DNA from: an uncultured Holophaga sp.
Lineage (GTDB): Bacteria; Acidobacteriota; Holophagae; Holophagales; Holophagaceae
NCBI GenBank assembly: GCA_963664825.1
Contig: OY761614.1
Span: forward strand, 2,528,001-2,592,000
Direction: 5' to 3'
DNA: 64,000 bases
Positions within the stretch are counted from its first letter, which is position 1. Each line of letters starts with the position of its first letter. This document shows, one piece after another, positions 1-25,429 of the stretch. The notes below the pieces were generated by a model. That model saw nothing but the letters and a program-made list of their open reading frames with translations. It was not told the DNA's origin and made no database searches. The position numbers were made by a program, and so were the translations under genes.

Positions 1-96
1 GGTCCGGCGTAGTGCGTAGCTGTGCTGCTCGGGTTCCCCCTGATGCCCCTCGGTCTGCCAGGACCAAGGAAAACGGCATGGGGGGATGTTCTTTTA

Positions 97-567
97 TTAG
101 GCTATTTGGTTATCTTTCGTCTGTGCTCTGAGTTTGTATTCTGAGTTTGTAACAGAATTATACCTTCCTTCTTTGCCTGCATTTATCGCTACTCCGCGCC
201 ATAATTCATCATCTTTGCACCTGCGATTTAGTGCTTCCATTTCTTCTGGGCCGTAATCTTTATTGAGTTTTTTGTATTTTTCTCGCTCGTGGATTGTGAG
301 CAACATAACTCCTTCTTGCCAATCAATAAACTCTTGAGTGTTTCTAAAACCCATCTCGATGGCATATTTTTGATTTGCCATTCGCCATTGCTCTTCGGGC
401 CTCGCAAGGGAAATTAAACGTAGGAGCGCTTGGGTCCTAGAAACGCCGAATCCACCCTCTTGAGACAGGAAGGCGGCGTATTGGTCAAGCCATTCCAGCG
501 TCTCGGGGGGGAGCCGGAATGCGGCCTGGATTGTCTTGGGTTCGTCCATGTTCCCAATGTAAACCAA
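97..567 (-). CDS. Hypothetical protein with possible N-terminal ribbon-helix-helix DNA-binding motif; low GC, likely prophage/ICE remnant
   Basis: 156-aa ORF; AFRLPPETLEWLDQYA...VSRTQALLRLI resembles CopG/RHH; lies next to an integrase fragment. Confidence 0.5.
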   Translation of the reverse strand: MVYIGNMDEPKTIQAAFRLPPETLEWLDQYAAFLSQEGGFGVSRTQALLRLISLARPEEQWRMANQKYAIEMGFRNTQEFIDWQEGVMLLTIHEREKYKKLNKDYGPEEMEALNRRCKDDELWRGVAINAGKEGRYNSVTNSEYKLRAQTKDNQIA

Positions 568-606
568 TCGGTCCCACTGTCAACATCCATGAACAATCTT
601 TTTTTC

Positions 607-838
607 TCATGGCTTTAAGTTCTTCTTCTTGCGTGACTTATCCCCGCCGAATCCCTCGATTGCTTCCCCGATCTGCTCAACCGCGGCCCGCAGCGGGTCC
701 AGGTCGGCATGGGAATACCGCTCCGTGGTCTTGGAGCTGGCATGGCCCAGGAGCTTCTGACGAAGGGTGATGTTCTGATTGAGGGTCACTGAGAGGGTGC
801 CGAAGGAATGCCGGAGGTCGTGCATCCGAACGTCTGGA
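607..838 (-). pseudogene. C-terminal fragment of a phage-type tyrosine recombinase, truncated by IS66
   Basis: DVRMHDLRHSFGT (HxxR) and LLGHASSKTTERY (H, catalytic Y) motifs; frame runs into the IS end at 839. Confidence 0.85.
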
Positions 839-2466
839 GTATCGATTCACCCCCCTTGTCCCTGTGACCACGTAAGCCGGTGGCAGGCAGCCATGATGGG
901 CTGGTGATGTCCCGCTTGCCCTGGCAGCCTCAGGCTGGTTCCAGTGCCGGTAGGGGCTGGTTGGATCGGGCGGAGTGGAGGGCCCTGAGCAGCCAGTCGA
1001 AGTAGGGGACGCCGCGGATGCGGGCGGTGGTGCCCAGGCTCAGGAGGCGTTCGAAGAATCGCTTTCCGTCCGCGCTGGGCAGTCGCTGGAAGATCCGCTT
1101 GAGGATCACGAGGGGGCGCAGGGCCCGCTCGGCCGCATTGTTCGTCGGCTCCACGCCCTCGACCTTCAGGAACACCCAGAGCTTGTCCCATTTCCGGAGG
1201 AGGTCCTTCCCGAGGTTTCGGGCGGCCTTGTGATCCATCGCGCTGGCCTGGATCAGACCGCGTTTGAGCCGCGCCAGATTGATGGCGGTGCAGGCCCGGA
1301 GCTCTTTCCGGCTGATGTCGCCCGCCCGGAAGGTGTGCCACAGCGCAAAGATCTCCTCCTGCTCGGCGAGCAGTCGCTTTCCCAGTGCGGCCACCTCGGG
1401 CTTCTGGGATTCGCTCAGGGCGACGAACTCGCGGCGCAAATGGGCCCAGCAGAACTGGCGAACGGCAGATTTTAAGGCGTTGTAGGCGCCGTAGCGGTCC
1501 GTGCCAATCACGCCTTGGAAGTCCTCGGGAAGTATCGCCTTTAGGGCCCTCGCCCCACGGGTGTCACTGAAGTGGAAGAGGGCCGTACGGGCGGAAAGGG
1601 CCACCCAGATCCAGTCCCGGTCCTTCCGGCCGAAGCCGGTCTCGTCGAGGTTGAGCACATCCGCCGTACGGATCTGCTGGGAGAGGTCCTCCCAGGCGGG
1701 GAGTAGGTGGCTCCCCAGCGCCACACCGCTCTCGTGCAGCCAACCGCGTGAGACCGCTACGCCCGTCATCTCCGAGAGGAAACGCTGGAGCGGCGTCAGG
1801 CTCATGCGGCCCTCTGTGCGCAGATAGGCCGCCGCAGCCTGAAGGCGCGGGCCGATCCCGCCCGGCGCAGCCTCTGGGGGAAGCGGCGCCTGCACCTTCC
1901 TCTGGCAGTGCGGGCAGATCCCCTCCTCCAGCGCGTAGGCGATGACTTCTGTGAGGCGCTGAGCCAGATCCACCACCCGGTGCAGGCGCGTCCCGGTGAT
2001 GGCCCCTGAAGGAACCTCGCCTCGGCAGTGGGGGCAACAGGCGAGGGGCACCGAAACCGTACGGTCCTCGCTGCCTTCCGGCAGCATCACCCGAGCGGAT
2101 CCCTTCCGTCCCGGTTGGCCGCCGCGCTTGCGCCCCGTGGGCGGCGCCGGTGGCTTGGGTGGCGCCGCGGGTCCGTCCGAACTGGGGGGCTTGCTGCTGT
2201 TGCGACTGTCCTTCCCGAGGCGATCCTGGAGCGACTCCAGCAATTTTTCCAGGCGTTCCATCGCCTCCCGCAGGCAGACCATTTCCGCACGCAGTTCCCC
2301 GTTCTCGGCAGCCAGGGCCAGATAACGCGGATCAGTCAGAACAGGATCAAGCTCCATCCTTCAGAATCTGACTGGTTTGAGACCAAAGTACAAGCGAATT
2401 ATTCACTTGCGGTGATTTTATCCTCAATCACGAGTTGAGCCTGCATGGGGGGGGGTGAATCGATAC
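839..2466 (-). mobile_element. IS66-family element (single-ORF, ISBst12-like), copy 1, 1628 bp
   Basis: Terminal inverted repeats GTATCGATTCACCCCCC at both ends; near-identical to 23802-25429; no TSD (CGTCTGGA vs TCCCCTTT). Confidence 0.92.
930..2357 (-). CDS. IS66-family DDE transposase (TnpC-like)
   Basis: Leucine zipper, SRNSSKPPSSD, CPHC zinc fingers, LDETG, TDRYGAY, CWAHLRR, PTNNAAERALR. Confidence 0.93.
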   Translation of the reverse strand: MELDPVLTDPRYLALAAENGELRAEMVCLREAMERLEKLLESLQDRLGKDSRNSSKPPSSDGPAAPPKPPAPPTGRKRGGQPGRKGSARVMLPEGSEDRTVSVPLACCPHCRGEVPSGAITGTRLHRVVDLAQRLTEVIAYALEEGICPHCQRKVQAPLPPEAAPGGIGPRLQAAAAYLRTEGRMSLTPLQRFLSEMTGVAVSRGWLHESGVALGSHLLPAWEDLSQQIRTADVLNLDETGFGRKDRDWIWVALSARTALFHFSDTRGARALKAILPEDFQGVIGTDRYGAYNALKSAVRQFCWAHLRREFVALSESQKPEVAALGKRLLAEQEEIFALWHTFRAGDISRKELRACTAINLARLKRGLIQASAMDHKAARNLGKDLLRKWDKLWVFLKVEGVEPTNNAAERALRPLVILKRIFQRLPSADGKRFFERLLSLGTTARIRGVPYFDWLLRALHSARSNQPLPALEPA

Positions 2467-3785
2467 TCCCCTTTTCTGAGGGGAGGTGCCCATGGAGGGC
2501 GCAATGGAAGTGGTGCACAGCGTGGCCTGTGGGCTGGACGTGCACGCGGCGGTGGTGGTGGCGTGCCTGGTGCGGACGGGCCTGAATGGAGGCCCGCACT
2601 ACGAGGAGCGTTCGTTCGGGACCGGGCTCGCGGAGCTGAAGGAGCTCCGGGATTGGCTTGTAGCCAGCGGGTGCCAGATGGCCGGGATGGAGGCGACCGG
2701 GGTGTACTGGATGCCAGTGCACGGTGTGCTGGAGGGAAAGGTGCCGGTGGTGGTGGGGAACCCGCAGCACATGAAGGGGCTCCGCGGGCATAAGACGGAC
2801 CGTAAGGACGCGAAGTGGATTGCGACGCTGGTGCGGCATGACCTGATCCGGGGGAGCTTCGTGCCGCCGCCCGAATTTCGGGACGCTCGGGAGCTGACAC
2901 GCTTCCGGCGGCAGCTGATCCAGGCCCGGACGGCGGTGCGGAACGAGATCCAGCGCCTCCTGGCGCGGCAGGGGATCACGTTCGGCACGGTGCTGAGCAA
3001 CGTGTTCGGAGCCTCGGGGATGGCGATCCTGGAGGCACTGGCCGAGGGGCGGAGCGTGCTGGAGGAACTGCCGAAGCTCGTGCATCGGTCGGTGCGGGTG
3101 AAGCTTCCGATGCTGAGCGCAGCCCTGGAGGCGCCCATGGCGGACATTCCGAGGTATCTGCTGATGACGCAGCTCCAGCGGCTGGAGGCGGTGGAGGAGG
3201 ACATCCAGACGATCGAGCAAAAGATCGCGGCGCACCTGGAGCCCCACAAGGCCAAGCTGGAACTGCTGATGACGATCCCCGGCGTGAGCCTGACCTCGGG
3301 GTGCATCATCCTGGCGGAGATCGGCGTGGATATGACCTGCTGGCCGACGGCGAAGCACCTGTCGGCGTGGGGCGGGGTGGCGCCAGGGTGCCGGGAGAGT
3401 GGCGGGAAGACGCATCGGGCCGGAACCCGGAAGGGGAATCCCTACCTGTGCAGCACGCTCGTGGAATGTGCCGGCGCAGCCGTGAAGAAGAAGGACTGCC
3501 ACCTGGGGCGAAAGTATCGGCACCTGGCGGCCCAGACCGGCAGCAAGAAGAAGGCACTCATCGCGATCGCCAGGAAACTGCTCGTGCTGGTGTACAACCT
3601 GCTGGGCCAAGGAGGACCTTATGAAGAGCCGAAGCCAAAGGACCTGACGGACGAGAAGCGGAGGAAGGCCGTCCAGAGGCATCTGCGAGAACTGGCCAAA
3701 CTGGGCGTTTCGGTGGACCTGCTCCCGATCGAACTCGAAATACAACATGCCTAGAAACAATCAGTTCGATTGACTTTCATGGCAG
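2467..3785 (+). mobile_element. IS110 element; left non-coding end truncated by IS66
   Basis: Only ~20 bp remain upstream of the ORF; right end inferred at TTTCATGGCAG ~30 bp after the stop codon. Confidence 0.65.
2486..3754 (+). CDS. IS110-family transposase (DEDD recombinase)
   Basis: GLDVH, MEATG, KTDRKDA (DEDD) and TIPGVS...RESGGK...RKGN motifs. Confidence 0.93.
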   Translation: MPMEGAMEVVHSVACGLDVHAAVVVACLVRTGLNGGPHYEERSFGTGLAELKELRDWLVASGCQMAGMEATGVYWMPVHGVLEGKVPVVVGNPQHMKGLRGHKTDRKDAKWIATLVRHDLIRGSFVPPPEFRDARELTRFRRQLIQARTAVRNEIQRLLARQGITFGTVLSNVFGASGMAILEALAEGRSVLEELPKLVHRSVRVKLPMLSAALEAPMADIPRYLLMTQLQRLEAVEEDIQTIEQKIAAHLEPHKAKLELLMTIPGVSLTSGCIILAEIGVDMTCWPTAKHLSAWGGVAPGCRESGGKTHRAGTRKGNPYLCSTLVECAGAAVKKKDCHLGRKYRHLAAQTGSKKKALIAIARKLLVLVYNLLGQGGPYEEPKPKDLTDEKRRKAVQRHLRELAKLGVSVDLLPIELEIQHA

Positions 3786-3987
3786 GCGGTGCGAGACATT
3801 GCATGTGGTTGATCCGGACAAGTGGTGATGAACGTGCGTGCTAAATGCTAATCAGAATGGGCGCTTGAATGTTGCGAATATGCTTGTTTATGGAGAACGT
3901 TGGAATTTTGGGAGTGCTGACCTTTAATCTTGTGACCGATGTGAAAATGGGCGGCGCGAAGATCGTGTTCAGATTGATTGAGAAGAC

Positions 3988-4110
3988 GCCTAACGATACG
4001 AGCTAACCGGCGCTGCCGAAGCGGCGCGGTGAGCGGGGATGAGAAATCGGAAAGAACGGCGAGGACGGTGCCTCGCAGAGGCAGCGTCTAGGTTGAGCGA
4101 CCGGTTAGGC
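3988..4110 (-). repeat. attC site
   Basis: GCCTAAC...GCTAAC (L)...GTTGAG (L)...GTTAGGC, 123 bp imperfect palindrome. Confidence 0.9.
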
Positions 4111-4388
4111 GAGAACGCAGCGTTGGTGCGGGCCGCGATGGTTCGAAGCGATCCGATTGGATTGGCGTTCCTGGACCTGGAAGCTTGCATGGGCAAATCG
4201 GAGAAATGGGCCGAGAAGAGCCGTGCTGCTGAATTGGAAAGGCCGTTGGGCTAGGCGCGTGTTCGAATTGTCGGAGCGTACTCGGAACGATGATAGCGGT
4301 TTTATCGATTAAGTTGACGTGGCTGGATAGTTGGAAGGAAAGCGCTGGGAGAGTTTTGCAGTTCAGCAACGCCAGAAAGCCAGGAGAC
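4111..4388. other. ORF-less gene cassette, copy A
   Basis: Lies between two attC sites; no credible ORF; 12 substitutions versus 9135-9412. Confidence 0.75.
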
Positions 4389-4511
4389 GCCTAACGATTG
4401 GAGTTAACCGGCGCTGCCGAAGCGGCGCGGTGGTGAGAGACGAGAAATCCGAACGCTGATCGAGGACGGTGACTCGCAGAGGCAGCGTCCGGGTTGAACG
4501 ATTGGTTAGGC
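4389..4511 (-). repeat. attC site
   Basis: Same architecture, 123 bp. Confidence 0.9.
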
Positions 4512-5093
4512 ATGCCGGGATGCACGCTTAAGTTGCTTGAGAAGGTCAAGGACATCTCCAGAACAACCGCTGCCGGAGAAATCGAGGGGGCCGACCCCCA
4601 GGGCCAAACCAACCAAGTCACAGTATTGCTGTATGTCTTCTATGAATTTGAGCAACTCTTGTTCTGATGTTTCTCCGAGTGGAGCGCCCTGAACTTGATG
4701 TGCATAGTCAAAATGGGCGATGAATTTATCGCGAGCGGGTTTTAGTTTTTCACCGTATTCAACGATAGAGCCGCCTGTCGTCGATATTTCTGAGGACAAC
4801 AAATCTATGCGCTTGAGTGCCCGATTCAATAGCTGGACAGTGATGTTGTAGTGAATACCATCTTTGCGTTTTGATTCGGGCGGATCAGAAAGTTTACATG
4901 CTTGAAGTATCCAATCTCGCTGAAGAATATTGGCAATGTCGGTAAAAAATGTCGGCGCTGTTTTAGAAAGAATTTCGCGAGATGATTCGTTGAATAATTC
5001 TATATAAGTGTTGTAGTCGCGCCTGAGGCGGATGCAGTGATCTCGGAGATGAGTGAAGATCTCGATGGCGTAATCGGATTCGCTCATTGGCAT
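4506..5093 (-). CDS. Cassette gene: putative HEPN-domain (AbiU2-like) protein
   Basis: Helical protein with RDKFIAHFD (Rx5H) motif; stop codon lies in the attC R'' box. Confidence 0.6.
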   Translation of the reverse strand: MPMSESDYAIEIFTHLRDHCIRLRRDYNTYIELFNESSREILSKTAPTFFTDIANILQRDWILQACKLSDPPESKRKDGIHYNITVQLLNRALKRIDLLSSEISTTGGSIVEYGEKLKPARDKFIAHFDYAHQVQGAPLGETSEQELLKFIEDIQQYCDLVGLALGVGPLDFSGSGCSGDVLDLLKQLKRASRHA

Positions 5094-5215
5094 GCCTAAC
5101 GAGTGAGTTAACCGGCGCTACCGAAGCGGCGCGACGAGGGGAGTGTAGAAATCGGAGCGATTGGTGGTGATTGTAAGAACAAGAGGTAGCGTCCGGGTTG
5201 AACGATTGGTTAGGC
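5094..5215 (-). repeat. attC site
   Basis: GCCTAAC...GTTAGGC, 122 bp. Confidence 0.9.
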
Positions 5216-5243
5216 CGAAATGGGATCAACAACAATGCCAGCT

Positions 5244-5462
5244 TTAAACACCTAATTCAGAACGTAGAGAAGTTAAATATTGAATCGCTGTGTCGAAAAT
5301 TGGCCCGGCACATGCCTTGCAAAAATTTTCGACGTCCCTAAGGCCGTGTTTGACAACGAGGTGCTGTTCGCCTGGAGCAATTTCACAAGAGTAGTGACAA
5401 GTCCTGGTGGCTTTGGCCTTGTCGATTTTGATATTGACGGTAATGTTTTTGCTTTTAGCCAT
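5244..5462 (-). CDS. Cassette gene: small putative zinc-finger protein
   Basis: 72 aa, CHYSC...CKAC; AGGAG RBS upstream. Confidence 0.65.
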   Translation of the reverse strand: MAKSKNITVNIKIDKAKATRTCHYSCEIAPGEQHLVVKHGLRDVENFCKACAGPIFDTAIQYLTSLRSELGV

Positions 5463-5500
5463 GCTTCACTCCTTGAGAGTTGCAGGTTGGTTCGTGAGAG

Positions 5501-5622
5501 GCCTAACGAGTGAGTTAACCGGCGCTACCGAAGCGGCGCGACGATGGGAGTGTAGGAATCAGAGCGATTGGTGGTGGTTGTAAGAACAAGAGGTAGCGTC
5601 CGGGTTGAACGATTGGTTAGGG
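5501..5622 (-). repeat. attC site
   Basis: GCCTAAC...GTTAGGG; R'' matches the CCCTAAC at the start of its own cassette (6036). Confidence 0.9.
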
Positions 5623-5636
5623 CGAAGAGAGACATG

Positions 5637-6017
5637 CTAATTTAATTTGTAAAGGACTGTGAGTTTGAACTTTGCAGCATACGGTTTGCCGTCGATAAGA
5701 GCGGGAAGAAACCTGAATTGCATAGCGAAGGTTTCAGCACTGGCTCTTAATTCAACTGGACCTGATAAGATCTCTGTCTTGATTGGAATCCCCTTGTCAT
5801 CGAGAAGAATCATCACCTCGACTGTTCCGTGGATTCCGAGAGCCTTGGCTTCAGCAGGCTCATCAGGGGCTGGTGGTTGGTATTTAATCTCAACCTGAGT
5901 GAAAGCAAATTTCTTTCCATCCTTATCGTAGTAGGCCTTGGAGGGACGTACATCAGTGCTGGGCTTGGTGCAGGAGATGAGGCCCAAACACATGATGGTA
6001 AGGATTAGACAGCGCAT
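5637..6017 (-). CDS. Cassette gene: lipoprotein with TonB C-terminal domain
   Basis: Lipobox LISC; PAEAKALGIHGTVEV...FRFLPALIDGKP TonB_C pattern. Confidence 0.8.
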   Translation of the reverse strand: MRCLILTIMCLGLISCTKPSTDVRPSKAYYDKDGKKFAFTQVEIKYQPPAPDEPAEAKALGIHGTVEVMILLDDKGIPIKTEILSGPVELRASAETFAMQFRFLPALIDGKPYAAKFKLTVLYKLN

Positions 6018-6035
6018 TAGGTTCCTTAGAATGAG

Positions 6036-6158
6036 CCCTAACGATTGGAGTTAACCGGCACTACCGAAGCGGCGCGTTGAGGGGAGACGAGAAATCGGAA
6101 TGCTGGGAGGGGAAAGTGACTCGCAGAGGTAGCGTCCGAGTTGAACGATTGGTTAGGC
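6036..6158 (-). repeat. attC site
   Basis: CCCTAAC...GTTAGGC. Confidence 0.9.
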
Positions 6159-6173
6159 ACGATGCCGTATATA

Positions 6174-6452
6174 TCAATCTTGAGCTCTGCCGCCCTGGTC
6201 ATATGCAGCGCGTTTCCGCCACAATTTTTGCCCTTTCTCCCAAATAACATCGTCGCCTGTGAGTTTTTTGAACTCTTTCAGGACAGACTTGTCAATCGCG
6301 GTGCCTCCATTTTGATTGAAGTACCAATGGGGCTTACCGAATTTTGTCATTATCTGAACTACAGCAACCTCTTGATACAGGTAATGAACTTTGTTGAGCT
6401 CTTCGAGCATCCACTGAGCTACAGTTTTGGCATCAACTTCTTGCATGATCAC
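6174..6452 (-). CDS. Cassette gene: hypothetical protein (DUF6953-like), second gene of a two-gene cassette
   Basis: 92 aa; YFNQNGGTAIDKSVLKEFKKLT...WRKR pattern; ATGA overlap with the upstream ORF. Confidence 0.65.
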   Translation of the reverse strand: MIMQEVDAKTVAQWMLEELNKVHYLYQEVAVVQIMTKFGKPHWYFNQNGGTAIDKSVLKEFKKLTGDDVIWEKGQKLWRKRAAYDQGGRAQD

Positions 6453-6637
6453 TTCTCTTCGTTTGAGGCTTCAAGAACGCCCTCTATAAAATGATTGGAA
6501 TTTAACTTGGGACCCGCAAACCATTGGCAATGGTATTCAATTGGATCCATATCAGAATAGACATTTGCAACAGTCATTTTTGGGCCTCCAGATTTTAGGC
6601 AAACCTGCTGGCCTGTTTGGAATTTTGTCTTTTTCAT
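6449..6637 (-). CDS. Cassette gene: YodC/DUF2158-family small protein
   Basis: FQTGQQVCLKSGGPKMTV...CQWF motif; GGAGG RBS. Confidence 0.8.
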   Translation of the reverse strand: MKKTKFQTGQQVCLKSGGPKMTVANVYSDMDPIEYHCQWFAGPKLNSNHFIEGVLEASNEEK

Positions 6638-6661
6638 GAAGTACCTCCTGGTTGATAGAGT

Positions 6662-6786
6662 GCCTAACGAAAGGAGTTAACCGGACCAACAGCCGGTGGG
6701 ATGTTCGAGGGGGACGAGAAAGCGGGATGCATGGGGGAGATTGGAAGACTGTGGCTGTTGGGTCCGGGTTGAACGATTGGTTAGGC
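6662..6786 (-). repeat. attC site (variant type shared with 10100)
   Basis: GCCTAAC...CCGGACCAACAGC...GCTGTTGGGTCCGG...GTTAGGC. Confidence 0.9.
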
Positions 6787-7053
6787 CGATGTTGACCATT
6801 TTCGTGATAGGTACCTAGCAAGAAAGAATGTGCCGATATTAAGACAGAAATGCGTAAGAGCCATTTGGAAAGCTTGAAGATGCGTTAGATATTCTTGATC
6901 GCCACCGAGATAGCCAAAGCCGATTGGTATCCGAAATTCCGGGATGTCGGTAACGAACCACACGCGACTTGGGAGAGCCAAGGAGAGGACGAGGAAGGTC
7001 CACCAACACACCCAAACAACCCTCTGTCTTCTCGTTCTTTGTAGGACGGGCAT
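6781..7053 (-). CDS. Cassette gene: small membrane protein
   Basis: 90 aa, two hydrophobic segments; fills the cassette; stop codon in R''. Confidence 0.6.
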   Translation of the reverse strand: MPVLQRTRRQRVVWVCWWTFLVLSLALPSRVWFVTDIPEFRIPIGFGYLGGDQEYLTHLQAFQMALTHFCLNIGTFFLARYLSRKWSTSA

Positions 7054-7059
7054 TGTGAT

Positions 7060-7181
7060 GCCTAACGAGTGAGTTAACCGGCGCTACCGAAGCGGCGCGA
7101 CGAGTGGAGACGAGGAATCGGAATGGCCGATGAGGACGCTGCCTCGCAGAGGTAGCGTCCGGGTTGAACGATTTGTTAGGC
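7060..7181 (-). repeat. attC site
   Basis: GCCTAAC...GTTAGGC. Confidence 0.9.
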
Positions 7182-7198
7182 TGGTGCCGTGCATGAGG

Positions 7199-7345
7199 TC
7201 ATTGCTGGTGTTCGTTGAGTCGCTTTTCTAATTTGCGAACCTTGAAGAAGGCGATGACCCCAAGGATGCCACCGCCAAGGCAGACAACGCCGATAAGGCA
7301 GCCAGGAATCATCAAAACGAGTTCAGTAAGTCCGAGATTGCCCAC
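7199..7345 (-). CDS. Cassette gene: 48-aa single-pass membrane microprotein (not in ORF track)
   Basis: AGGAGG RBS then GTG; MGNLGLTELVLMIPGCLIGVVCLGGGILGVIAFFKVRKLEKRLNEHQQ. Confidence 0.75.
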   Translation of the reverse strand: MGNLGLTELVLMIPGCLIGVVCLGGGILGVIAFFKVRKLEKRLNEHQQ

Positions 7346-7364
7346 TGGGCCTCCTTGAATTGCA

Positions 7365-7487
7365 GCCTAACGATCGGAGCTAACCGGCGCTGCCGAAGCG
7401 GCGCGGAGCGAGAGTGACGAGAAATCCGAACGATGGTGAGGACGGTGCCTCGCAGAGGCAGCGTCCGGGTTGAGCGATTGGTTAGGC
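7365..7487 (-). repeat. attC site
   Basis: GCCTAAC...GTTAGGC. Confidence 0.9.
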
Positions 7488-7488
7488 A

Positions 7489-8046
7489 TTAGATGGCAAC
7501 AGGTTCGAGCATGAGTTCAATTTCAGGAGGCAAATTCCTTGGTTGCAAAATTGAACCGAGCTTTTTTTTGAGAAATGTAACGAGAATCCAAATAGAGATT
7601 CGCATGTCGGTAAGAACAAACCAGAATTTTTGATTATCAAGGGCTGATCCGCTTAATGATTCTGGATTCAGTTTTTCAGCATGGCTGGAAAACGAGTTCA
7701 ATTGAGCCGTGATTTCCTGAACGAGTCGCTCAAGCGAACGATCGGACCAAACGCCCCGAGACAAAGTTCGGATCTCTTTTCTAACTTCATAAAGGCTTGT
7801 CATTGCGTGTTTAGGGCACTCATCTTGGCCGCATTCGTAGAAAAGGCGACGTGAATCAATTTCATTAACAATATCGTGGACTTTGTTTAAATCTGGATCC
7901 TTGATTTCAATACTTCCAATCTTGAAGCAACCGTTTGCGGCGGCTTGTCGGAAAACGGAAACCAGATTTTTCATCAATCCTTCTGAACGAGCCAAGAGCA
8001 TTGCATCTGTGATATTCGCATCGACATGAAAATTTCTGAGGCTCAT
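7489..8046 (-). CDS. Cassette gene: hypothetical protein (possibly DUF6650-like)
   Basis: 185 aa, AGGAG RBS; DSRRLFY...SLYEVRKEI motif. Confidence 0.6.
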   Translation of the reverse strand: MSLRNFHVDANITDAMLLARSEGLMKNLVSVFRQAAANGCFKIGSIEIKDPDLNKVHDIVNEIDSRRLFYECGQDECPKHAMTSLYEVRKEIRTLSRGVWSDRSLERLVQEITAQLNSFSSHAEKLNPESLSGSALDNQKFWFVLTDMRISIWILVTFLKKKLGSILQPRNLPPEIELMLEPVAI

Positions 8047-8064
8047 CTGGATCTCCTGGGTAAT

Positions 8065-8110
8065 GCCTAACTTTGAATTGGACGAACCCGACGAAGTGCT
8101 TCGTAGTTCG
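8065..8110 (-). other. Second attI-like site inside the array
   Basis: GCCTAACTTTGAATTGGACG versus GCCTAACTTTAAATTGGACG at 10641 (19/20); no attC structure here. Confidence 0.75.
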
Positions 8111-8291
8111 CCTAATCGGGGTTGAGTGGAAGTGTAAATGTTGACAGAACCGTGAAGCTAGAAAAAGGGGGAAGCGGAATAGGCAGACAGGAAATGGGCG
8201 GATGGGAGGGCGTTTTGGGAGGGGAGCCGAAGGAGACAAGTTTCATATGAGTACGCCCGAAATTTTAGGCAAATCGCGCCTCGGGTAAGCG

Positions 8292-8413
8292 GCCTAACGA
8301 GTGAGTTAACCGGCGCTACCGAAGCGGCGCGTTGAAGGGAGACGAGGAATCAGGGAGTTTGGTGGGGAAAGTGACTCGCAGAGGTAGCGTCCGGGTTGAA
8401 CGATTGGTTAGGC
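8292..8413 (-). repeat. attC site
   Basis: GCCTAAC...GTTAGGC. Confidence 0.9.
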
Positions 8414-8427
8414 AGCGCGGGAGACCC

Positions 8428-8988
8428 CTAGAGTGTATGAAGAAAATCGAGGTCGATTTGGAACGCCTTTGTTGTTGGATTGGCCGAAATCAACTCTGTG
8501 TAGATCGCTATCAAAGCGGACTTGGAAAGGCATGGCGGTGGTGGTTCGACTAGGGAACAATGACCACCAAGAATCCTCACTCGATAGACAAGCTGAATCG
8601 GCCTAACATCCTTCATTAGCTTTCTCGGGTTCGTACCGTAATTCCCCTTACCTTCTGTTCTTGCTAGTTGTGAGTAATCCACGGCAACGGAAAAAATACC
8701 TTTGCTGGAAGTTACCGTAGGCAAAACTTTATAACTATCGACAACGAAAAGTGGGTCGGCGTCAGGGAAGAAACACAAAGCCAGAGGCTCTTTTCGTATC
8801 TTGCGTTTAAGAGCATTCGTCATGTATATGTTGCCTTGATTTCTCGTTGGTATTTTGCCTTCAAACTCTTTCTGAATGATCCCCTGAACAAATGCGCTTG
8901 CTCGTTCTGAATTGCTGAGGGGTATGGCAAGCTGAGCGACGAGGCACTGGACCACAAGAATGGTTGGAATCAATTGATGGCCTTTCAT
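8428..8988 (-). CDS. Cassette gene: putative exported hypothetical protein
   Basis: 186 aa with hydrophobic N-terminus; fills the cassette. Confidence 0.65.
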   Translation of the reverse strand: MKGHQLIPTILVVQCLVAQLAIPLSNSERASAFVQGIIQKEFEGKIPTRNQGNIYMTNALKRKIRKEPLALCFFPDADPLFVVDSYKVLPTVTSSKGIFSVAVDYSQLARTEGKGNYGTNPRKLMKDVRPIQLVYRVRILGGHCSLVEPPPPCLSKSALIAIYTELISANPTTKAFQIDLDFLHTL

Positions 8989-9011
8989 ATTTGGGTAATC
9001 GTCGGGACGAT

Positions 9012-9134
9012 GCCTAACGATCGGAGCTAACCGGCGCTGCCGAAGCGGCGCGGTGAGCGGGGATGAGAAATCGGAAAGAATGGCGAGGACGGTGCCTCGC
9101 AGAGGCAGCGTCTAGGTTGAGCGACCGGTTAGGC
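9012..9134 (-). repeat. attC site
   Basis: Near-identical to 3988-4110. Confidence 0.9.
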
Positions 9135-9412
9135 GAGAACGCAGCGCTGGTGCGGGCCGCAATGGTTCGAAGCGATCCGATTGGGTTGGCGTTCCTGGAC
9201 CTGGAAGCTTGCATGGGCAAATCGGAGAAATGGGCTGAGAAGAGCCGTGTTGCTGAATTGGAAAGGCCGTTGGGCTAGGCGCGTGTTCGAATTGTTGGAG
9301 CGTACTCGGAACGATGATAGCGGTTTTATCGATTAAGTTGGCGTGGCTGGATAGCTGGAAGGAAAACGTCGGGAGAGTCTTGCAGTTCAGCAACGCCAGA
9401 AAGCCAGGAGAC
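9135..9412. other. ORF-less gene cassette, copy B
   Basis: About 96% identical to 4111-4388. Confidence 0.75.
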
Positions 9413-9534
9413 GCCTAACGAGTGAGTTAACCGGCGCTACCGAAGCGGCGCGACGAGGGGAGTGTAGAAATCGGAGCGATTGGTGGTGGTTGTAAGAACC
9501 AGAGGTAGCGTCTGGGTTGAACGATTGGTTAGGC
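9413..9534 (-). repeat. attC site
   Basis: Near-identical to 5094-5215. Confidence 0.9.
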
Positions 9535-10068
9535 CGCTCTAGATAGTGAGATTAATTCGGATTTTATTGTTTTTACAGTGGTTAAAAAATTTGTTATCGC
9601 TTTTTGAGATGGCTCCAGAAGCTCAGTGTTGATTTTGACGCCATTTTCCATTGCTTTGGCATAATTAATGTTATACTTGGCCATCTCTCTGAAATATTCG
9701 ACAATTTTGTCCCAGTGTGGAATGAGTTCGGGAAAATTTGAATTGATCCTTATTTCAATTATGCCAAGTTGAATATCGCTGTCTGTTGCAATGCCATTTA
9801 CAGAGTCAAGATATTTTTGCCACGATATTTGTTCTTTTAGTAATGAAATAAAAGACAAGTGTCTTGTGACAGTAGATCCATTCCATATGTAAATAGAATT
9901 ATAAATTTGTTCTAGCATTTCAACACGCTGTCTCCTTTTCTCTCGCTTGTTTTCAATATCGAATTGGATTTGAAGGCGTTTGAGATTGGCTTTATTGGTC
10001 AGGTGAGAAGCAAGAAATGCTGAACCAGTAGCCAGGATAGTTGTGATCAAGGTCTGAATGAAAGACAT
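9529..10068 (-). CDS. Cassette gene: N-terminal TM helix, coiled coil and helical domain
   Basis: Low-GC ORF; GGAG RBS before MSFIQ; stop codon in R''. Confidence 0.7.
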   Translation of the reverse strand: MSFIQTLITTILATGSAFLASHLTNKANLKRLQIQFDIENKREKRRQRVEMLEQIYNSIYIWNGSTVTRHLSFISLLKEQISWQKYLDSVNGIATDSDIQLGIIEIRINSNFPELIPHWDKIVEYFREMAKYNINYAKAMENGVKINTELLEPSQKAITNFLTTVKTIKSELISLSRAA

Positions 10069-10099
10069 CGCTATTCTCCACATAGACTTTGACGTTGCG

Positions 10100-10224
10100 G
10101 CCTAACGAAAGGAGTTAACCGGACCAACAGCTGGTGGGATGAGCGAAGGGGACGAGAAAGCGGGATGCATGGGGGAGATTGGAAGATCGTGGCTGTTGGG
10201 TCCGGGTTGAACGATTGGTTAGGC
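10100..10224 (-). repeat. attC site (variant type shared with 6662)
   Basis: GCCTAAC...GTTAGGC. Confidence 0.9.
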
Positions 10225-10690: not shown

Positions 10691-10899
10691 TGCGGGGGAG
10701 AGGGGAGGGGGGGCGGTACGCATTTGGGGGGACTTAGGCGAACGGAGGGAGGGGGCTTGACGGGCGAAAAAAAAGCGTCATCCTTCCAACGCGCTGAGTT
10801 GTGTGGCATGAACGGTTTCCAAGCTTAGCGCATTAGGCGAACCCATGCAGGGGGGTGTTTGCCATGGGTGACGAGATTAGGCAGACAGGAAAGGAGGGG

Positions 10900-11883
10900 A
10901 TGGAGGCCGGAACCGGCCCCGCGCGCCGCTTCCTCGATGGGCTCCGGGAGGAACTCCGGGTCCGGCACTACAGCCTCCGGACGGAGGATGCCTACGTGGA
11001 TTGGGTGCGTCGCTTCATCCTCTTCCACGGGAAGCGCCATCCGAGGGAGATGGGGGCCCCGGAGGTCCAGGCCTTCCTGAGCCATCTGGCGATGGCGCGA
11101 AACGTGGCGCCCTCCACCCAGAACCAAGCCAAGGCCGCCCTGCTGTTCCTGTACCGGGTGGTCCTCGGCGACAGGCTCCCCTGGATGCGGGAGATCGCCC
11201 AGGCCAAGGAACATGCGCGCCTCCCGGTGGTCCTGACCCCCGGCGAGGTGAGGATCCTCTTCGATCAGATGGAGGGCACCATGGCCCTCATCGCCCGGGT
11301 GCTGTATGGAACCGGCCTGCGCTTGATGGAGGGGCTGCGACTGCGGGTGAAGGACCTCGAGTTTGAGCGCCGGGAGATCATTGTGAGGGAAGGCAAGGGG
11401 GGCAAGGATCGGGTCACCATGCTTCCCGAAAGCCTCCTGGTGCCTCTCCAGCGGCACCTGCTGAAGGTCCGGGCCCTGCATGAGCAGGACCTGGCCGAGG
11501 GCTTCGGCGAGGTGTGGCTGCCCGACGCCCTGGAGGTGAAGAGTTCCACGGCGGCGAGGGCCTGGGGCTGGCAGTGGGTGTTCCCCTCGGCCCAGCGTGC
11601 GGCCGATCCCAGGTCGGGCGCGATCCGCCGCCACCACATCCATCCGGAAAGCGTCCAGAAGGCGGTGCGGATCGCGGGACGGGCCGGCGAGCTGGTCAAG
11701 CCGGTCACGCCCCATGTGCTGCGCCATTCCTTCGCCACCCACCTGCTGGCGGCGGGCCATGATATCCGCACCGTCCAGGAGCTGCTGGGGCACAAGGACG
11801 TGGAGACCACCATGATCTACACCCATGTCCTCAATCGGGGCGGCCTGGGGGTTCCCAGTCCCCTGGACATCCTGGGAGGCTGA
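10900..11883 (+). CDS. intI: Integron integrase
   Basis: [30 protein letters not shown], IntI-specific patch (WGWQWVFPS...[11 protein letters not shown]), [29 protein letters not shown]. Confidence 0.97.
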
Positions 11884-23801: not shown

Positions 23802-25429
23802 GTATCGATTCACCCCCCCCCATGCAGGCTCAACTCGTGATTGAGGATAAAATCACCGCAAGTGAATAATTCGCTTGTACTTTGGTCTCAAACCAGTCAG
23901 ATTCTGAAGGATGGAGCTTGATCCTGTTCTGACTGATCCGCGTTATCTGGCCCTGGCTGCCGAGAACGGGGAACTGCGTGCGGAAATGGTCTGCCTGCGG
24001 GAGGCGATGGAACGCCTGGAAAAATTGCTGGAGTCGCTCCAGGATCGCCTCGGGAAGGACAGTCGCAACAGCAGCAAGCCCCCCAGTTCGGACGGACCCG
24101 CGGCGCCACCCAAGCCACCGGCGCCGCCCACGGGGCGCAAGCGCGGCGGCCAACCGGGACGGAAGGGATCCGCTCGGGTGATGCTGCCGGAAGGCAGCGA
24201 GGACCGTACGGTTTCGGTGCCCCTCGCCTGTTGCCCCCACTGCCGAGGCGAGGTTCCTTCAGGGGCCATCACCGGGACGCGCCTGCACCGGGTGGTGGAT
24301 CTGGCTCAGCGCCTCACAGAAGTCATCGCCTACGCGCTGGAGGAGGGGATCTGCCCGCACTGCCAGAGGAAGGTGCAGGCGCCGCTTCCCCCAGAGGCTG
24401 CGCCGGGCGGGATCGGCCCGCGCCTTCAGGCTGCGGCGGCCTATCTGCGCACAGAGGGCCGCATGAGCCTGACGCCGCTCCAGCGTTTCCTCTCGGAGGT
24501 GACGGGCGTAGCGGTCTCACGCGGTTGGCTGCACGAGAGCGGTGTGGCGCTGGGGAGCCACCTACTCCCCGCCTGGGAGGACCTCTCCCAGCAGATCCGT
24601 ACGGCGGATGTGCTCAACCTCGACGAGACCGGCTTCGGCCGGAAGGACCGGGACTGGATCTGGGTGGCCCTTTCCGCCCGTACGGCCCTCTTCCACTTCA
24701 GTGACACCCGTGGGGCGAGGGCCCTAAAGGCGATACTTCCCGAGGACTTCCAAGGCGTGATTGGCACGGACCGCTACGGCGCCTACAACGCCTTAAAATC
24801 TGCCGTTCGCCAGTTCTGCTGGGCCCATTTGCGCCGCGAGTTCGTCGCCCTGAGCGAATCCCAGAAGCCCGAGGTGGCCGCACTGGGAAAGCGACTGCTC
24901 GCCGAGCAGGAGGAGATCTTTGCGCTGTGGCACACCTTCCGGGCGGGCGACATCAGCCGGAAAGAGCTCCGGGCCTGCACCGCCATCAATCTGGCGCGGC
25001 TCAAACGCGGTCTGATCCAGGCCAGCGCGATGGATCACAAGGCCGCCCGAAACCTCGGGAAGGACCTCCTCCGGAAATGGGACAAGCTCTGGGTGTTCCT
25101 GAAGGTCGAGGGCGTGGAGCCGACGAACAATGCGGCCGAGCGGGCCCTGCGCCCCCTCGTGATCCTCAAGCGGATCTTCCAGCGACTGCCCAGCGCGGAC
25201 GGAAAGCGATTCTTCGAACGCCTCCTGAGCCTGGGCACCACCGCCCGCATCCGCGGCGTCCCCTACTTCGACTGGCTGCTCAGGGCCCTCCACTCCGCCC
25301 GATCCAACCAGCCCCTACCGGCACTGGAACCAGCCTGAGGCTGCCAGGGCAAGCGGGACATCACCAGCCCATCATGGCTGCCTGCCACCGGCTTACGTGG
25401 TCACAGGGACAAGGGGGGTGAATCGATAC
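23802..25429 (+). mobile_element. IS66-family element, copy 2, with 8-bp TSD GGGCGCCG
   Basis: TIRs GTATCGATTCACCCCCC; GGGCGCCG at 23794-23801 and 25430-25437. Confidence 0.95.
23911..25338 (+). CDS. IS66-family transposase
   Basis: 475 aa; differs from copy 1 at one residue (SEMTG/SEVTG). Confidence 0.93.
   Translation: MELDPVLTDPRYLALAAENGELRAEMVCLREAMERLEKLLESLQDRLGKDSRNSSKPPSSDGPAAPPKPPAPPTGRKRGGQPGRKGSARVMLPEGSEDRTVSVPLACCPHCRGEVPSGAITGTRLHRVVDLAQRLTEVIAYALEEGICPHCQRKVQAPLPPEAAPGGIGPRLQAAAAYLRTEGRMSLTPLQRFLSEVTGVAVSRGWLHESGVALGSHLLPAWEDLSQQIRTADVLNLDETGFGRKDRDWIWVALSARTALFHFSDTRGARALKAILPEDFQGVIGTDRYGAYNALKSAVRQFCWAHLRREFVALSESQKPEVAALGKRLLAEQEEIFALWHTFRAGDISRKELRACTAINLARLKRGLIQASAMDHKAARNLGKDLLRKWDKLWVFLKVEGVEPTNNAAERALRPLVILKRIFQRLPSADGKRFFERLLSLGTTARIRGVPYFDWLLRALHSARSNQPLPALEPA

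Follow-up and report, generated by a model that had tools for sequence, protein, structure and literature searches.

A 5'-truncated IS110-family insertion sequence beside an attC box in a Holophaga integron, with predicted guide RNAs in its relatives

Why does an insertion sequence (IS) of the IS110 family lie at the end of an integron cassette array, antisense to the cassettes, with what looks like part of an attC site directly after its right end? The question was raised by an initial annotation of a 64,000-nucleotide (nt) stretch of DNA from an uncultured Holophaga sp. (GenBank assembly GCA_963664825.1, contig OY761614.1, positions 2,528,001 to 2,592,000). We refer to this whole stretch as the window and number it from its first base. 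The annotation proposed that the IS had inserted into the R'' box of an attC site and that it was programmed by RNA to do so. We find it very probable that positions 2467-3785 are a 5'-truncated IS110 IS whose intact right end adjoins the GC of an attC R'' box, and that the left-end RNA of its relatives, as predicted here, guides insertion at TTGGTT-AG-G(C/T).

The IS110 element and the junctions of its relatives

The element and its flank are arranged as follows (L numbers denote loci of relatives; a slash marks a junction; ORF, open reading frame; aa, amino acids):

2467-2491, plus strand: remnant of the IS110 left end, 25 nt, Shine-Dalgarno region; corresponds in alignments to the last part of the ~288-nt left ends in L005, L062, and L086
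2492-3754, plus strand: open, full-length gene for an IS110-family DEDD transposase (DEDD_Tnp_IS110 and Transposase_20 domains)
3755-3785, plus strand: short IS110 right end, 31 nt, ending ...GACTTTCATGGCAG; the final AG (3784-3785) is the core dinucleotide
3786-3787, plus strand: GC, all that survives of the target in the attC R'' box; read GTTAG/GC on the plus strand
3788-3987, minus strand: distal-most surviving cassette, 200 nt; no ORF of at least 40 aa on the cassette strand

The transposase has the two domains that define the family, an N-terminal DEDD RuvC-like domain and a C-terminal transposase domain (PF01548, 86.1 bits; PF02371, 65.1 bits; NF033542, 260 bits against a cut-off of 140). 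Its ORF runs from 2486/2492 to 3754 on the plus strand, with the stop codon TAG at 3752-3754. Residues 2-422 are 88% identical to the transposases of L061-L063, the IS621 transposase in the Protein Data Bank matches with E 5e-11, and the nearest of the plasmid-borne IS110-family proteins is less than 40% identical.

The right end reads aaacaatcagttcgattgactttcatggcAG (terminus ...TTTCATGGCAG) and is followed by GC at 3786-3787 and then by ggtgcgagac. The initial annotation had read AGGC at 3784-3787 directly after TTTCATGGC and had called the right end short; these are the exact bases, and the right end is 31 nt long. Its terminus recurs in L061-L064 and L076, whose flanks differ directly after CAG. 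More broadly, all relatives with a visible 3' end terminate in ...TTTCAnnnCAG, and the flanks of different copies diverge immediately after it. Because all of these right ends include the AG, we assign it to the IS and its core. Hence only the GC is informative on the attC target from the window alone, and two bases would agree by chance in 1 in 16 cases. The four-base match to attC on which the annotation had relied is present, but it shrinks to these two bases, as AG belongs to the IS end in every relative.

The transposase gene (tnp) is on the plus strand, whereas the cassettes are read from the minus strand; the element thus runs antisense to them. The interruption falls in the R'' (5') box, read GC/CT/AAC on the cassette strand, of the attC of cassette 3788-3987. 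Both the orientation and the break in R'' had been annotated correctly, with tnp on the plus strand, cassette ORFs on the minus strand, and GCCT followed by the interruption.

A search of the genome for other copies returned only the self match and one distant IS110 element (46% aa identity). As there is no second copy for a within-genome comparison of flanks, we used relatives, which we gathered by a genome-contig scan (6 loci) and a metagenome scan (28 loci). A family-wide search of 133 genomes gave matches in 19, own genome included.

Intact relatives (66-92% aa identity) occupy exactly the window's position in attC sites. In those at 88-92%, the left junctions read cgattGGTTAG/GCACTGACGG (L061, L062/63) and cgattGGTTAG/GCCCCGACCGG (L086); in each, a complete attC on the left, ending ...gggttgaacgattGGTTAG, runs into the IS left end. 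At 66% aa identity, L065 reads attC...gagcggagGGTTAG/ACCC...caggacAG/GCggctgg (left flank ggagGGTTAG), and joining its flanks across the element restores GGTTAGGC exactly. The right junctions of the 86-100% group are catggcAG/GCggtgcg (window), /GTcgtcc (L061), /GCgccggg (L062 and L063, counted as the same insertion), /GTcggtg (L064), and /GCgttttc (L076). The right flank thus starts with G(C/T) in 5/5 distinct junctions of this group and with GC in L065 (6/6). The pattern that the initial annotation had predicted for intact copies, ...GGTT[AG]-IS-[AG]GC, is therefore what the aligned flanks of L061, L062/63, L086, and L065 contain, with G(C/T) on the right. Arrays of attC sites flank L061, L062, L063, L065, L076, and L086, and the orientation of attC relative to tnp is always as in the window.

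AG is found at both junctions wherever both are visible (e.g., L032, L004, L036, L037, L061, L062, and L065); the window keeps the right junction only. Site-specific insertion, a short core common to both junctions, and the lack of a conventional target duplication are all as in the IS110 family. We considered GC as the core instead of AG and rejected it, since L061 and L064 have GT on the right and L061 has GC on the left. The left GC of L061 is carried by the IS, because GT follows its right core.

We built a maximum-likelihood tree of 36 transposases, from Holophagaceae and metagenome relatives only, leaving out loci whose longest ORF was <380 aa or that lacked the N-terminal G-[LIV]-D-[VLI] motif, as well as identical duplicates. 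The window groups with L061 and L005. Its clade falls into an unresolved group with L065 (an attC-targeter), L068, and a clade with the guide ACATAAG that targets repetitive extragenic palindromic (REP)-like repeats.

One metagenome contig (L076) holds a window-type IS within a cassette array, with attC on both sides. It is a second 5'-truncated copy, in which only transposase residues 241-422 match.

A predicted guide RNA in the left end

The relatives have a non-coding left end of ~288 nt between the left junction and the ATG (1216-1503 in L062). We aligned 13 left ends from elements whose transposases share 44-92% aa identity and folded them with RNAalifold. The consensus has an outer stem (columns 126-134 with 278-286) and two domains: (i) a first domain with a stem (143-147/184-188), an internal loop, and an inner hairpin (156-162/169-174); and (ii) a second domain closed by 191-196/267-272. 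Compensatory changes are present in 18/45 pairs. In pair counting, 93% of cells were paired, versus 37-46% in slid controls, and changes on both sides occurred in 16/42 pairs, versus 2-7 in the controls. The covariation score was reached by 0/500 shuffles.

Two segments of this structure repeat sequences at the ends of the insertion. The 3' strand of the first internal loop equals the left flank plus the core and is followed by ACU. It reads TTGGTTAG in the window's clade, (U)UGGUUAG in relatives, and TGGGTTAG in L065; in attC-sited relatives, the loop strand ccgTTGGTTAGAC matches attC R'' and spacer. Members sited in REP-like repeats have ACATAAG, AACCGCAG, TAATCAG, AAATAAG, and others. The loop strand varies together with the left flank over 10 distinct guides. 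In 14 distinct combinations, guide and left flank agree at 4-7 of the 8 positions on the 5' side of the core (mean 5.7); cross-pairings of guides and flanks (n = 172) gave a mean of 2.16 and a maximum of 6, highest among related GTTAG guides. The other segment lies in the second domain, where cacgaATGGCAGtgt is identical to the final 7 nt of the right end in 25/25 loci with both visible, a count that includes many copies of one element and leaves aside 5 further loci without a visible right end. Five distinct variants of this 7-mer occur (ATGGCAG, ATGACAG, ATAGCAG, ATTGCAG, and AGGACAG). The window's right end carries ATGGCAG, which is the donor-guide segment of L005, L061-63, and L086. By the definitions in the available text of PMC11208160, the loop 3' strand would be a left target guide and the second-domain 7-mer a left donor guide.

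We propose the following mechanism. The ~288-nt left end would encode a bridge RNA, as covariation in the relatives suggests, whose outer stem surrounds an internal loop for target binding. In this loop, the 3' strand would repeat the left flank and the core AG exactly (here UUGGUUAG), and the 5' strand would end in ..ACCU, complementary to AGGU; the second domain would carry the 7-mer of the IS right end (AUGGCAG). By analogy with IS621, the AG core would be where an excised circle (right end-AG-left end) recombines with the target.

This model would also account for the choice of R'' and for the orientation. The left target half would consist of R'' and 3 nt of the R''-L'' spacer, both read on the bottom strand, and a guide that reads R'' and three spacer bases fixes both the insertion position and the antisense orientation. 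The word TTGGTTAGG is found on the plus strand in 9/12 attC sites of the window and on the minus strand in 0; it occurs 13 times in the whole 3.47-Mb genome. The R' end has a different spacer, without this word. A guide for R'' plus spacer would meet many targets in any array of this attC type.

The predicted guides also change within the lineage. L037 (TAAATAAG) and L052 (TTCGTTAG) have different guides, though their transposases are very close (short branches, in a clade other than the window's), which is consistent with a candidate case of natural bridge-RNA retargeting. Separately, an 8-9-nt inverted repeat covaries between the two ends of the element, with TGAAAGTC ~40 nt inside the left end and GACTTTCA near the right end (-15 to -8). 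Members of the IS1111-attC group are expected to have sub-terminal inverted repeats, 7-17 bp long, close to either end; as TGAAAGTC is far from the left terminus, it may be an RNA or protein-binding element instead of such a repeat.

Several points weigh against guided insertion into attC. The window itself shows neither a left junction, nor the left half of an attC, nor the RNA, and just GC supports attC there. Both the left-end RNA and the role assigned to it as a guide are predicted. When sequences are folded singly, the two strands of the target loop pair with each other. The candidate right target guide in the loop 5' strand, CACAACCU, predicts AGGTTGTG, and right flanks match it at 3-6 of 8 positions; at +2 it calls for T, but C is present in the window, L062, and L076. 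Inspection of the 13-sequence alignment for a right donor guide revealed no left-end segment that covaries with the start of the left end. L005 (84% aa) sits at ccTTGGTTAG/ACCC, with the TTGGTTAG word and no recognisable attC nearby. L039 and L052 (44% aa) carry GTTAG guides, yet neither locus matches the attC pattern, which leaves them unsupported as attC-targeters. Rfam searches gave no match on window positions 1-8000, and only sub-threshold chance matches to miRNA families on the loci of four relatives.

More distant relatives with other guides are located in REP-like repeats. Together with the site of L005 outside any recognisable attC, these locations fit guide-directed targeting and do not refute it. 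The initial annotation had held that copies ending elsewhere, or sitting in non-attC targets, would count against its proposal. The other copies do end at the same position, but L005 and the relatives in REP-like repeats are indeed outside any recognisable attC. Its wider claim of an AG core and RNA programming against the attC box is supported by the junctions and predicted left-end guides of the relatives; the window copy has no left end to add. For the same reason the fold that it suggested is impossible on the window copy, and it is in the relatives that the target loop matches attC R'' and spacer.

Directly before the IS in L005 (2170-2200) is a tandem 11-nt duplication, GCCTTGGTTAG GCCTTGGTTAG, a possible footprint of an earlier insertion or excision.

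How else could the junction have arisen? If the 200 nt at 3788-3987 were an IS1111-type long right end encoding a seekRNA, the element would end at 3987, at an intact GCCTAAC, and the AGGC would be internal and meaningless. The known IS1111-attC elements do carry their guide RNA downstream of tnp according to the portion of PMC11187229 available, and the lack of an ORF of at least 40 aa on the cassette strand would suit such an end. Yet five distinct right flanks in the 86-100% group diverge fully directly after ...CATGGCAG, the long non-coding end of the relatives, with its covarying structure and guides, is upstream of tnp, and the donor 7-mer is the sequence that ends at 3785. We regard this explanation as extremely unlikely. 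It is highly unlikely, too, that the IS inserted into ordinary sequence at the array edge and that GC mimics an R'' remnant by chance. Two bases are little to go by, the left junction is lost, and L005 shows that the lineage can occupy a non-attC site; but exactly this position and orientation recur at three distinct left junctions in attC among the 88-92% relatives and at a fourth at 66%, the 200 nt to the next attC suits a short cassette, and G(C/T) opens the right flank in all 6 distinct junctions.

A further explanation accepts that the IS is in attC and holds that what the transposase recognises is attC in its folded form or in complex with protein, the left-end RNA not being a targeting device. 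We consider this very unlikely. It would draw on the structured nature of attC sites and on the weak guide match of the right flank, whereas the loop strand tracks the left flank over 10 distinct guides, very close transposases (L037 and L052) differ in guide, and L005 uses the same word outside attC. RNA guidance is, moreover, established for IS621 (PMC11208160, available text) and for IS1111/IS110 elements (PMC11187229, available text). Guided insertion at the R'' box is the reading that we retain.

The genome's other IS110 element (L053, G000:C1:2716318-2720067, outside the window) has a transposase match that stops at residue 254. Its left flank, CTTTCATGGCAG, is identical over 12 nt to the right-end terminus of the window element, and its guide strand is TTGGCAG; either it targeted the end of a now-vanished window-type IS copy, or the mimicry is unexplained. 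Same-genus genomes also hold a second, distant IS110-family element (L046, G107:C475; L047, G105:C134; 36% aa). The two halves of a window-type attC enclose it in L046 (agcgtccgggttga / IS ...tttcgtcataac / gattggttaggc), which puts it in or beside the L'' box. Two unrelated IS110 lineages may thus insert at different places in window-type attC sites.

The cassette array and the loss of the left end

The surroundings of the element contain the following features:

607-838, minus strand: 3' fragment of a tyrosine-recombinase gene (Pfam Phage_integrase, E 7e-7, profile positions 126-169 of 172), truncated by the IS66-family element
839-2466, minus strand: IS66-family element, GTATCGATTCACC...GGTGAATCGATAC (DDE_Tnp_IS66, E 2e-42; transposase 930-2357), without a target-site duplication
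3988-10224, minus strand: 12 intact attC sites and their cassettes; attC ~122 nt, GCCTAAC...GTTAGGC
10855-11883, plus strand: integron integrase gene intI (TIGR02249, 452.8 bits against a cut-off of 265)

The attC pattern matched 12 times in the array, versus 0.02 matches expected by chance. Cassette ORFs are on the minus strand, and their starts adjoin the box that reads GCCTAAC on the plus strand. The sites have R'' + 5 nt + GTTCAAC (minus strand) versus GTTAAC + 6 nt + R', a spacing that agrees with what we take to be the canonical attC layout. As the ORF starts adjoin the GCCTAAC box and the spacing agrees, the minus strand is the cassette (top) strand. With intI and attC-bounded cassettes in a single orientation, divergent from intI, the locus has the features of an integron; a candidate attI is GCCTAAC at about 10641. 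Cassette 3788-3987 occurs once in its own genome and was not found in 8 same-genus genomes, except for one 25-nt match (E 0.004). A search of the 8 other genomes of the genus for an empty site (3786-3990) found none. Cargo of other cassettes includes an HEPN AbiU2-like protein (4506-5093, minus strand, E 1.5e-19) and a protein with a TonB C-terminal domain (5637-6017, minus strand, E 5.7e-11).

The initial annotation had placed the start of the IS110 element at 2467, which proved to be the first base after the IS66-family element and not an IS110 left end. The right end of the IS66 element (2466) adjoins tccccttttctgaggggaggtgcccATG, which can be aligned to the last ~25 nt of the relatives' left ends; this boundary lies 25 nt upstream of the ATG. 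The window copy lacks about 263 nt of left end, including the whole predicted bridge RNA. BLAST of the genome with the L005 left end gave chance hits only (best E 0.27), and nhmmer with a 2-sequence left-end profile found only the left end of the distant IS110 element (E 8e-4). Because tnp has neither a guide RNA nor its upstream region and native promoter, the window copy is probably immobile.

The IS66 assignment follows from the DDE_Tnp_IS66 transposase, the terminal inverted repeats, and an 8-bp target duplication in copies of the family. There are 24 matches to this element in the genome, at least 10 of them near-identical full copies; besides 839-2466, the window has the element at 23802-25429. 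The 8-bp duplication is present in 12/16 full-length copies, and the window copy is one of the 4 without it (flanks cgtctgga on the left and tccccttt on the right). None of the 38 IS66 end matches genome-wide has the reciprocal flank that would signal an inversion at the window copy.

The simplest account, which we infer, is a deletion by two directly repeated IS66 copies. One IS66-family element would have inserted 25 nt upstream of the IS110 ATG, and a second, in the tyrosine-recombinase gene, would have recombined with it; this would have deleted the bridge-RNA region, the remaining attC, and everything between the copies. The account rests on the missing duplication and the missing partner flank, and against it, a partner may be unassembled or lost. 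The truncated tyrosine-recombinase fragment gives Xer/IntI-type NCBIfam matches that are all under their cut-offs. Elsewhere, two other IS66 ends have reverse-complementary flanks, gaaccatg (G000 3462849) and catggttc (G000 584), which suggests an IS-mediated inversion, and the single contig of the genome begins and ends inside IS66 copies.

Significance and comparison with known systems

The mechanism proposed here is standard for the RNA-guided IS110 family, and the attC target class is already known from a sister group. What is new is the lineage and its combination of architecture and target. To our knowledge, attC targeting by IS110-superfamily elements is otherwise known only for the IS1111-attC group. 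We found no description, in the literature searched (supplements were outside the search), of an attC-targeting element with its guide upstream of tnp, or of integron-associated insertion sequences in Holophagaceae.

The copy in the window has decayed, and its main value is to mark the site. The locus shows IS110 elements and secondary IS66 events shortening chromosomal cassette arrays. In the lineage as a whole, related bridge RNAs would have switched naturally between attC boxes and REP-like repeats as targets, and such a series would help to work out the guide rules of a second bridge-RNA architecture. More tentatively, and with the balance of our judgment against it, the sequences would allow a fuller scenario in which an IS110-group lineage of Holophagaceae converged with the IS1111-attC group on attC. 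The left-end GC (AC in L005 and L065) would rebuild an RYYYAAC-type R'' box and leave attC foldable and recombination-competent, and the IS might then ride in the upstream cassette, movable both by IntI and by its own RNA-guided recombinase.

IS621 and the IS110 group share with the window's lineage a two-domain protein, a long left end, a short right end, and a 2-nt core common to donor and target. The core of IS621 is CT; in the window's lineage it is AG on the transposase strand, and the target is an integron attC box. The lineage further differs in that the identical-strand guide occupies the loop's 3' side, a hairpin loop is the predicted location of the donor 7-mer, and neither a right-donor guide nor an Rfam family match was found. 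As in IS621, the loop strand is identical to the left target plus core, which is how the left target guide is defined in the available part of PMC11208160. A long non-coding end upstream of tnp and a short right end, the arrangement that PMC11187229 and PMC11208160 give for the IS110 group in their available sections, is the one we find.

The IS1111-attC group comprises ISPa21, ISPst6, ISKpn4, and ISPa25, which insert site-specifically near the 5' end of attC and antisense to the cassettes (PMC3001079, available text). The lineage described here resembles it, as far as that text goes, in having a DEDD (IS110-superfamily) transposase, in targeting one end of attC, and in its antisense orientation. 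In architecture the two differ. The available text of PMC11187229 places the guide RNA upstream of tnp in the IS110 type and downstream in the IS1111 type, and describes the seekRNA of IS1111-attC elements as having two short segments that match both strands of the attC target. A guide or long non-coding region downstream of tnp is absent from the window element, whose right end is 31 nt long with flanks that diverge after it; in its relatives the guide-bearing region is the ~288-nt left end. The IS1111-attC group, to which the initial annotation had turned for precedent, is thus no model for the architecture, since a long non-coding end upstream of tnp is the IS110-group arrangement. Finally, group IIC-attC introns are retroelements that lack a DEDD transposase and work by an entirely different mechanism, but they too insert near the 5' end of attC and antisense to the cassettes (PMC3001079, available text), as the window's lineage does.

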